Below are positions 2,890 through 4,159 of a DNA stretch of 64,000 nucleotides, in pieces; position 1 is the first letter of the stretch, and each line of letters opens with the position of its first letter. Under the pieces are notes generated by a model. That model ran no database searches and was not told where the DNA came from. It saw only the letters and a list, made by a program, of their open reading frames with translations. Where the stretch lies: positions 192,001-256,000 of the IMG/VR virus record IMGVR_UViG_3300032030_000005; one strand, given 5' to 3'. This stretch comes from a virus. Its lineage: Duplodnaviria; Caudoviricetes. Made by a program: the position numbers and the translations under genes.

Positions 2890-3124
2890 TTAATTATCAT
2901 AGTTTTTGTTCTTTGTGGTTTCTTTCTTTGATGAGATACCAAAAACTCCTTTGTATTTTTATTAGGCTAGTAGTTACATGTAACTGTAAGTAGTATCGGA
3001 TATTACACTAGCCTTTAATTTTCTATCAATCTTTGATAATCCTCTTTGTCTAACATATCGCACCAAATTAAATAAAAGGCGATCGTGTGAATATTAATTT
3101 GGGAATAAGCACATTAAAATTTTT

Positions 3125-3601
3125 ATGAAAGGTTTTATAATGGCTAAAAAATATTTTGCAGAAGAATGGAAAGATCGTATTATTGAAGCTATCAATAATA
3201 CTAATAATATGACTCAAGCTTATAAATATTTAAACTTAGAAAGAAAAACATTTATAAAAATGGCAAAAGAATTAGGTCTATATAAAACTAATCAAGGTGC
3301 TAAAGGTTCTAATAAGAAACATAAATACCATAGCCCTGATGATTTAAAAGATATATTGACTGAAAATTCTACATATCAAAGTTCAAAATTAAAGAAAAGA
3401 TTAATTGAAGTTGGTTTAAAAGAAAATAAATGTGAAATATGTGGTATTAATACATGGAATAATAAACCATTAGTATTACAGCTACATCATAAAAATGGAA
3501 TTCACAATGATAATAGATTAGAAAATTTAGAAATAGTCTGTCCAAATTGTCATTCTCAAACTGATAATTTTACAGCTAAAAATATAAAAAAGAATAAATA
3601 A
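3125..3601 (+). CDS. free-standing HNH homing endonuclease
   Basis: CEICG...LQLHHKNG...DNRLENLEIVCPNCH; lies inside the tRNA cluster. Confidence 0.9.
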   Translation: MKGFIMAKKYFAEEWKDRIIEAINNTNNMTQAYKYLNLERKTFIKMAKELGLYKTNQGAKGSNKKHKYHSPDDLKDILTENSTYQSSKLKKRLIEVGLKENKCEICGINTWNNKPLVLQLHHKNGIHNDNRLENLEIVCPNCHSQTDNFTAKNIKKNK

Positions 3602-3606
3602 TATAA

Positions 3607-3692
3607 GCCAGTGTGGTGGAATAGGCAGACACTCGGCACTTAAAATGCCGTGACGGTAAAAGGTCGTATGGGTTCAAGTCCCATCACTGGTA
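3607..3692 (+). tRNA. tRNA-Leu(UAA)
   Basis: GCCAGTG/CACTGGT acceptor stem, CGGCA-CTTAAAA-TGCCG anticodon arm, long variable arm. Confidence 0.93.
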
Positions 3693-4159
3693 TCAGACTT
3701 TACATTTTTGTTCATTGGTGTAAAGTTCTATCCTTTCTGCGTGAATAAAGAAATGTGCAAATGGCTTGTTCCTAGACTATATTTATTATTTTAATAAATG
3801 TAAGCCGTCATCGTAGGCGGCATAGTCTTTTATTTTCTTATTTATTTGGTTGACATTTAGTTCATAAAAATCTATATTTTAAAAAAATTAACACCATTGT
3901 ATTTTGTTATTCTCCTTTTCAAAGACGTGCATTTCGGGTTGGCTTCTTGGATACTTGTTGACGGTTTATTCTAACAAACAATTTGCAATTTTCATCAATA
4001 ATACATACATAATACTTATAGATTTTTATAGACGAATACCTCCTATCTAATAAATTACCGGACATATTTTTGACTGGATATTCTCAATCATAGTGAACTC
4101 TTCCTAGGATTAATTAAAGCTTGTTTTTGTTAATTTTCAAGCTTTAATATTTTATATAA

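Follow-up and report, generated by a model that had tools for sequence, protein, structure and literature searches.

The spacers of a tRNA cluster in a rumen jumbo phage carry an excess of anti-Shine-Dalgarno (anti-SD) sites on one strand, and the same excess is found in syntenic relatives whose spacers differ in sequence. Candidate targets at translation starts of Ruminococcus were found for four of the six segments that bear these sites, and two of the four are defence-like genes on mobile elements. We give a probability of about 0.6 to the reading that the spacers form an array of antisense seeds, resembling the small RNAs RsaE and RoxS, that blocks host translation starts, partly as a counter-defence.

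The window, by which we mean the whole stretch of 64,000 nucleotides analyzed, sits in a virus record of 305,865 nt (IMGVR_UViG_3300032030_000005), that of a ~306-kb jumbo phage, and the stretch is present in sequencing runs from sheep and cattle gut metagenomes and metatranscriptomes. Its tRNA cluster comprises eight tRNAs between 1209 and 4230, all on the plus strand, as are the features of the array given below, and ends in a terminator-like hairpin (4268-4298). The neighbouring AAA gene has its nearest annotated match in the Bacillus phages PBS1/AR9 (32%) and was used to locate the syntenic phages L004/L015, L010, and L013, the AAA proteins being 54-58% identical among relatives. The range 2890-4150, described in a first, sequence-only reading as non-coding spacers, does hold two spacers (2891-3120 and 3693-4159) but also an HNH-endonuclease-like gene (3140-3601) and tRNA-Leu(UAA) (3607-3692); tRNA-Asn(GUU) (2815-2890) precedes it and tRNA-Gln(UUG) (4160-4230) follows. 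The HNH-like gene is a mobile element of the cluster; together with its leader (3061-3602) it is absent from one strain (run X12), it is also missing in L010 and L015, and it is placed before tRNA-Leu in the window and behind tRNA-Leu in L004 and L013.

On the 5' side of the array lies a ROOL RNA (2221-2802; Rfam RF03087), full length at model positions 1-574, with a score of 311 bits against a gathering score of 99. It is enclosed by a 32-nt inverted repeat (2212-2243 / 2783-2814) and covered by deep contigs in three RNA studies. ROOL is an RNA class of unknown function often situated near phage tRNA islands (10.1101/2024.12.08.627333); it also occurs in L010 (4244-4834) and L042 (about 2015-2610), and it was not found at the L004 and L013 loci. 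Several other elements of these loci deserve mention. The tRNA-Leu(UAA) of L015 is split (about 4980-5265) by about 290 nt resembling a group I intron, whereas at this place the tRNA of L004 is intact and the HNH gene comes after it; a group I intron also lies at 43481-43849 of the window (Rfam, 75 bits). The DUF6275 gene and tRNA-Tyr are separated by a structured stretch without annotation (window about 1600-1840), which is covered by contigs from RNA runs and has no anti-SD sites, and L010 has a GC-richer structured stretch before tRNA-Tyr (about 4900-5100). Behind the CW_7 cell-wall gene, a hairpin element is conserved in all four phages (window about 975-1055; L004 about 5840-5905; L010 about 3680-3745; L013 about 6580-6630). 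Atypical tRNA-like genes, which have a low Rfam score, are missed by ARAGORN, or have an anticodon called as two bases, were seen in L004 (8008-8084), L013 (6929-7003), and L010 (5561-5636).

All six anti-SD motifs and every stem arm picked out in the sequence-only reading were found in place. The segments concerned are A1 (2936-2963) and the weak A2 (3040-3047) behind tRNA-Asn, and B1 (3711-3747), B2 (3900-3930), B3 (4015-4044), and B4 (4084-4110) behind tRNA-Leu. Counted by a 6-mer rule, with dinucleotide shuffles that keep composition as the null, the window spacers have four anti-SD sites in 697 nt against 0.59 +/- 0.75 in shuffled sequence (p=0.002) and no sites on the sense strand. The region had originally been picked for its motifs, so that the relatives provide the fair test of enrichment; L004 has five sites (p=0.003), L010 five (p=0.001), and L013 six (p=0.001). 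Pooled over the four phages there are 20 sites versus 3.4 expected (maximum in 1000 shuffles, 11) and a single one on the opposite, sense strand, confirming the claim that anti-SD density is above that of shuffled spacers. The pooled spacers have 5.3 sites per kb, about sixfold the 0.86 per kb of the phage's other intergenic DNA, and neither the ROOL copies nor the Lys-Tyr spacer have an anti-SD excess. A 10-mer around the anti-SD is common to window 3733-3742 and L004 about 7555-7564, in spacers that are otherwise unlike.

These counts make it very unlikely that the segments have no pairing function and are pyrimidine-rich linkers or a product of SD avoidance on a non-coding transcript. The spacers are indeed U-rich, and composition did account for one apparent signal, that of host-like flanks (p=2e-7), which vanished against random spacer windows (p=0.92) because the spacers have a host-like composition. 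The shuffles that yield 3.4 sites rather than 20, however, keep that composition, SD avoidance would account for missing SD sequences and not for an excess of anti-SD, and the other intergenic DNA has but one sixth of the density.

In predicted local folds the sites lie within loops or between strong hairpins, and motif cytosines are unpaired more often than the remaining ones (0.60 vs. 0.43, p=6e-5); an unpaired, pyrimidine-rich seed complementary to the SD is thus a feature of the predicted structure. Among the hairpins are one (3696-3729) whose loop bears the anti-AUG of B1 and a stable one (4113-4148) closing the array before tRNA-Gln. The sequence-only reading had proposed that guides alternate with scaffolds, namely two three-way junctions (2964-3014 and 3774-3828) and a hairpin 5' of the HNH gene (3063-3102), each with ATCG in a loop. 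Both junctions fold (z -2.2 and -4.5, respectively) and have a UGUAA linker in common that joins two hairpins and is reminiscent of the UGUNR turn in the Alu domain of SRP, but the minimum-energy loop of the first is CGG and not ATCG, the hairpin at 3063-3102 is weak (z -1.65) and replaced by another in the HNH-less strain, and a descriptor search found no three-way junction with UGUAA in four relatives. Since the junctions were not found in relatives and two of the best segments have none, a guide-plus-scaffold architecture is not supported. A comparison with CRISPR likewise fails, as no repeat family was found in the spacers, the junction has two copies only instead of being a conserved repeat between variable guides, and the sole protein that might be a linked effector is the HNH-like gene with its patchy distribution.

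Contigs from the RNA libraries of three studies span the spacers in near-identical strains, which attests presence only; DNA may also be in the libraries. Contig depth, which cannot rank the parts of the locus, in two RNA runs is 48-84 over about 3850-4200 versus 4-9 across the HNH gene, and in a third run it is 3.9. A sigma-70-type promoter-like site at 3850-3878 matches at 11 of 12 positions, the top score in the region, and a separate transcript of the last three segments may begin there. This would be an alternative to the release of the segments by tRNA processing put forward in the first reading, which is not supported here. We infer the strand and the ends of the RNA; on the minus strand, no strong promoter was found in the region. 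This bears on what we hold to be the least probable of the alternatives, that the sites serve very small or decayed genes on the minus strand as ribosome-binding sites. Frames of 11-14 codons are open at three sites, but no more than 5 of the 26 sites have an AUG at usable spacing, the peptides implied vary from relative to relative, and one frame enters tRNA-Leu. The first reading's observation that anti-AUG triplets stand at initiation-site spacing suffers from the same count, as 5 of 26 at a host-typical spacing is near chance, and at the sites 3731 and 3912 the anti-AUG is 23 nt from the SD anchor, against a peak at 17 in host starts; it does hold for B4, which is in register.

Phage mRNAs had been named beside host mRNAs as what the array might silence, and we find it very improbable that the segments regulate the mRNAs of the phage itself or of rival phages. 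The same types of SD are present at phage starts, and small starts were possibly missed, but none of the six segments beat shuffled-flank controls on 249 phage starts (p 0.13-0.98), the phage genome has no long exact complement of the segments, and BLAST gave no target for L015. Exact DNA patterns of the segments found nothing in viral and metagenome collections, with two patterns yielding nothing in viral contigs.

The host is probably Ruminococcus, based on a homolog (64%) of the CW_7 cell-wall gene, which was found on a phage-like contig in the bin of an uncultured Ruminococcus. In a Ruminococcus-associated phage (L040/L019, one and the same phage), frames at about 8400-9200 of L040 seem to read through TAG codons, which suggests stop-codon recoding. 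Targets were sought in 161 genomes of the genus Ruminococcus. BLAST of the spacers over these genomes returned mostly AT-rich chance matches; BLAST misses wobble-rich duplexes. A scan that allows G-U pairs was run on 1955 starts from about 2 Mb fetched regardless of the segments; in G003, a carrier of the PIN toxin module described below, 1161 starts were scanned (about 1.2 of 4.6 Mb). Candidate targets in Ruminococcus were found for each of the four segments behind tRNA-Leu, and neither A1 nor A2 has a target above chance there, A1 being like a generic Ruminococcus start region. The proposal of antisense to host starts is moderately supported, by enrichment, strand bias, and predicted accessibility in four phages and by candidates for four of six segments, although the statistics of each candidate are borderline when taken singly (p about 0.02, or a chance expectation of 0.1-0.4).

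Residues 3725-3747 of B1 show complementarity to the SD region of a gene for a PIN toxin that follows a Phd/YefM antitoxin gene. The Phd-PIN module is found on mobile elements, adjoins a conjugation ATPase gene in one genome, and has a close copy in about 13 of the 161 genomes. In eight genomes the duplex is unbroken over 21-23 pairs, one or two of them G-U, and B1 places a G opposite a C/T polymorphism of the PIN start; a variant in Ruminococcus albus has 15 nt paired. The adjoining residues 3711-3721 reach the AUG of the toxin gene across two bulges, so that 30 target bases are covered (-40.2 kcal/mol) and the anti-AUG noted in the first reading may matter for B1; by the predicted fold, this pairing would need the hairpin at 3696-3729 to open. 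A position-specific Markov model of Ruminococcus starts predicts 0.12-0.4 chance occurrences of the unbroken duplex in about 370,000 starts, and the match is not significant alone. That the best match of B1 is a toxin, the kind of gene predicted beforehand, gives it added weight beyond these borderline statistics. The L004 segment that shares the 10-mer with B1 pairs modestly with PIN starts (best -22.9 kcal/mol). From this complementarity, we rate the chance that the PIN toxin is the target of B1 as a little short of even.

B3 matches, in register, the start of a gene behind an ECF sigma gene in G003 at 27 of 30 positions, with UAU opposite the AUG (p=0.019); from its position this gene, which has no Pfam match, would be anti-sigma-like. 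Within the family, 7 of 16 starts are in the top 0.5%, and with the discovery member omitted the value is -7.0 versus -1.3 +/- 1.2 kcal/mol (0/100 shuffles), a test on 15-16 paralogs that shares information with the discovery and is not independent of it. A 19-nt wobble pattern tried for B3 was found in 0 of 161 genomes; the later candidate pairs in another register. The anti-sigma gene is a possible target of B3, somewhat less probable than the toxin is for B1. For B2, the match with the best energy is the start of a sigma gene from the very family to which the candidate of B3 belongs, with a weak family test (32/100 and 3/60 shuffles); as a target, the ECF sigma gene is unlikely and the weakest of the four candidates. 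That ECF sigma family numbers about 15 paralogs over 2 Mb of Ruminococcus sequence (L078, L279, L290, L304, L308, L311), and its conserved C-terminal motif also provides the gene that follows with its SD and AUG.

B4 is in register, with both its anti-SD and its anti-AUG, on the start of a PAPS-reductase-domain gene in G003 (p=0.022). This gene overlaps a C5 DNA methylase gene beside a topoisomerase gene; the methylase-PAPS junction occurs in about 15 genomes, and its best variant pairs with B4 at 25 of 27 positions. In PADLOC the protein scores with BrxP and SspD (E about 1e-11), which is a likeness and not proof of defence. Two of the relatives' segments also lean weakly towards the start of the PAPS gene (p=0.007 and 0.03, without correction for about 26 segments). 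Going by the pairing, we regard the gene as a tentative target of B4, behind the candidates of B1 and B3 in likelihood. The PIN, PAPS, and anti-sigma starts are all starts of second genes, with the SD within the coding end of the preceding gene, so that each start is constrained.

Used as pseudo-guides, phage starts gave p<=0.05 in 4% of cases, in line with a calibrated null. With PIN left out, Fisher's combination over the six window segments gave p=0.088. For these segments a reversed wobble rule yielded nothing (Fisher 0.75), nor did genomes other than G003 (Fisher 0.43); L004 reaches 0.02-0.04 in the control columns. For the relatives' segments the best matches, among them homoserine dehydrogenase and tyrosyl-tRNA synthetase, were at chance, and the hosts of these phages may differ. 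Under the Markov null, an SPFH protein, a microbial PARG, a LUD protein, homoserine dehydrogenase, tyrosyl-tRNA synthetase, and transketolase were all rejected as chance targets.

It is feasible, if unlikely, that the segments are broad-spectrum mimics of the 16S rRNA tail, whose short cores rather than flanks would lower host initiation across the board or serve as decoys to proteins or nucleases recognizing the anti-SD end of 16S rRNA, such as a MazF variant that cuts UCCUU there. The cores do look like the 16S tail, many unrelated starts are matched at 18-19 of 19 positions by A1 and by the L010 segment at 6701, and no single target is significant. Against such mimicry speak the flanks, which on average are not tuned to the host start consensus (mean z 0.33, p=0.28), the SDs of the phage's own genes, which are equally strong, the varying type of the cores, and the pairing of B1, B3, and B4 far into specific flanks.

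We favor antisense seeds with individual targets, and propose that the spacers would be strings of such trans-acting seeds. Each would expose, between hairpins, a pyrimidine-rich anti-SD toehold that binds the SD of a host mRNA; pairing would then extend into gene-specific flanks over 20-30 pairs with G-U wobble, and the duplex would block 30S loading, with repression of the host gene and a benefit to the phage as the presumed outcome. Likely targets in Ruminococcus would be the mobile Phd-PIN toxin, the PAPS-domain gene behind a DNA methylase, and the expanded ECF sigma/anti-sigma family. Silencing of both a sigma factor and its anti-sigma has no single obvious outcome.

The closest known parallels are RsaE of S. 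aureus and RoxS of B. subtilis, whose exposed C-rich motifs bind SD regions and prevent initiation complexes (PMC6158497). The array is like them in its exposed SD-binding motifs, several seeds per RNA, and Firmicute setting, and differs in being phage-encoded and located in tRNA spacers, in seeds that vary among themselves and between phages, in predicted duplexes of 20-30 pairs, and in having no Rfam match, as nothing within 2891-4159, including RsaE/RoxS, was found at the gathering score. In E. coli, the tRNA trailer 3'ETS-leuZ is a base-pairing RNA that sponges small RNAs. It too comes from a tRNA spacer, but the window segments carry the anti-SD themselves, and their partners would be mRNAs. 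Type I antitoxin RNAs and the C4 antisense RNA of P1/P7 block the start of a toxin or regulator; unlike these, the array has neither a cognate target in the same genome nor a family match. The phage regulatory RNAs PreS, VpdS, 24B_1, OOP, and StxS also pair with host or phage mRNA, yet, as presented in a review, they are single RNAs, mostly of temperate phages, with no multi-seed array among them, and the word tRNA is absent from its main text (PMC12197685). We found no description of multi-seed arrays in phage tRNA spacers in the literature covered, from which subscription journals are largely missing. In its proposed mode of action the array resembles known anti-SD small RNAs, but it fell into none of the families tested, and the candidate host targets of such segments are new here.

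Phage tRNA clusters have been proposed to counter defence by tRNA-cleaving toxins, PIN/VapC toxins among them (PMC10264068, PMC11555353). The type of locus is the same; there, the tRNAs replace cut host tRNAs, and here the spacers would block synthesis of the toxin. By analogy, silencing of a PIN toxin would fit the role against tRNA-cleaving defences that is proposed for phage tRNA clusters (PMC10264068). A bolder generalization, which we put forward as speculative, is that the spacers of jumbo-phage tRNA operons may be an evolvable, protein-free bank of antisense seeds directed against the constrained, translationally coupled starts of host genes for toxins, DNA modification, and envelope signalling, a multiplexed RNA counter-defence whose targets could be read from sequence.

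Most described phage counter-defence is protein-based. If the reading proposed here is true, an antisense-seed bank in tRNA spacers would add an RNA route to it, give a function to commonly overlooked DNA, and strengthen the link between phage tRNA clusters and counter-defence. The candidate pairs make the idea testable with simple reporters, and, again if true, the seeds would point to the host genes that hinder the phage, and so offer a route to defence genes and to the hosts of uncultured phages.
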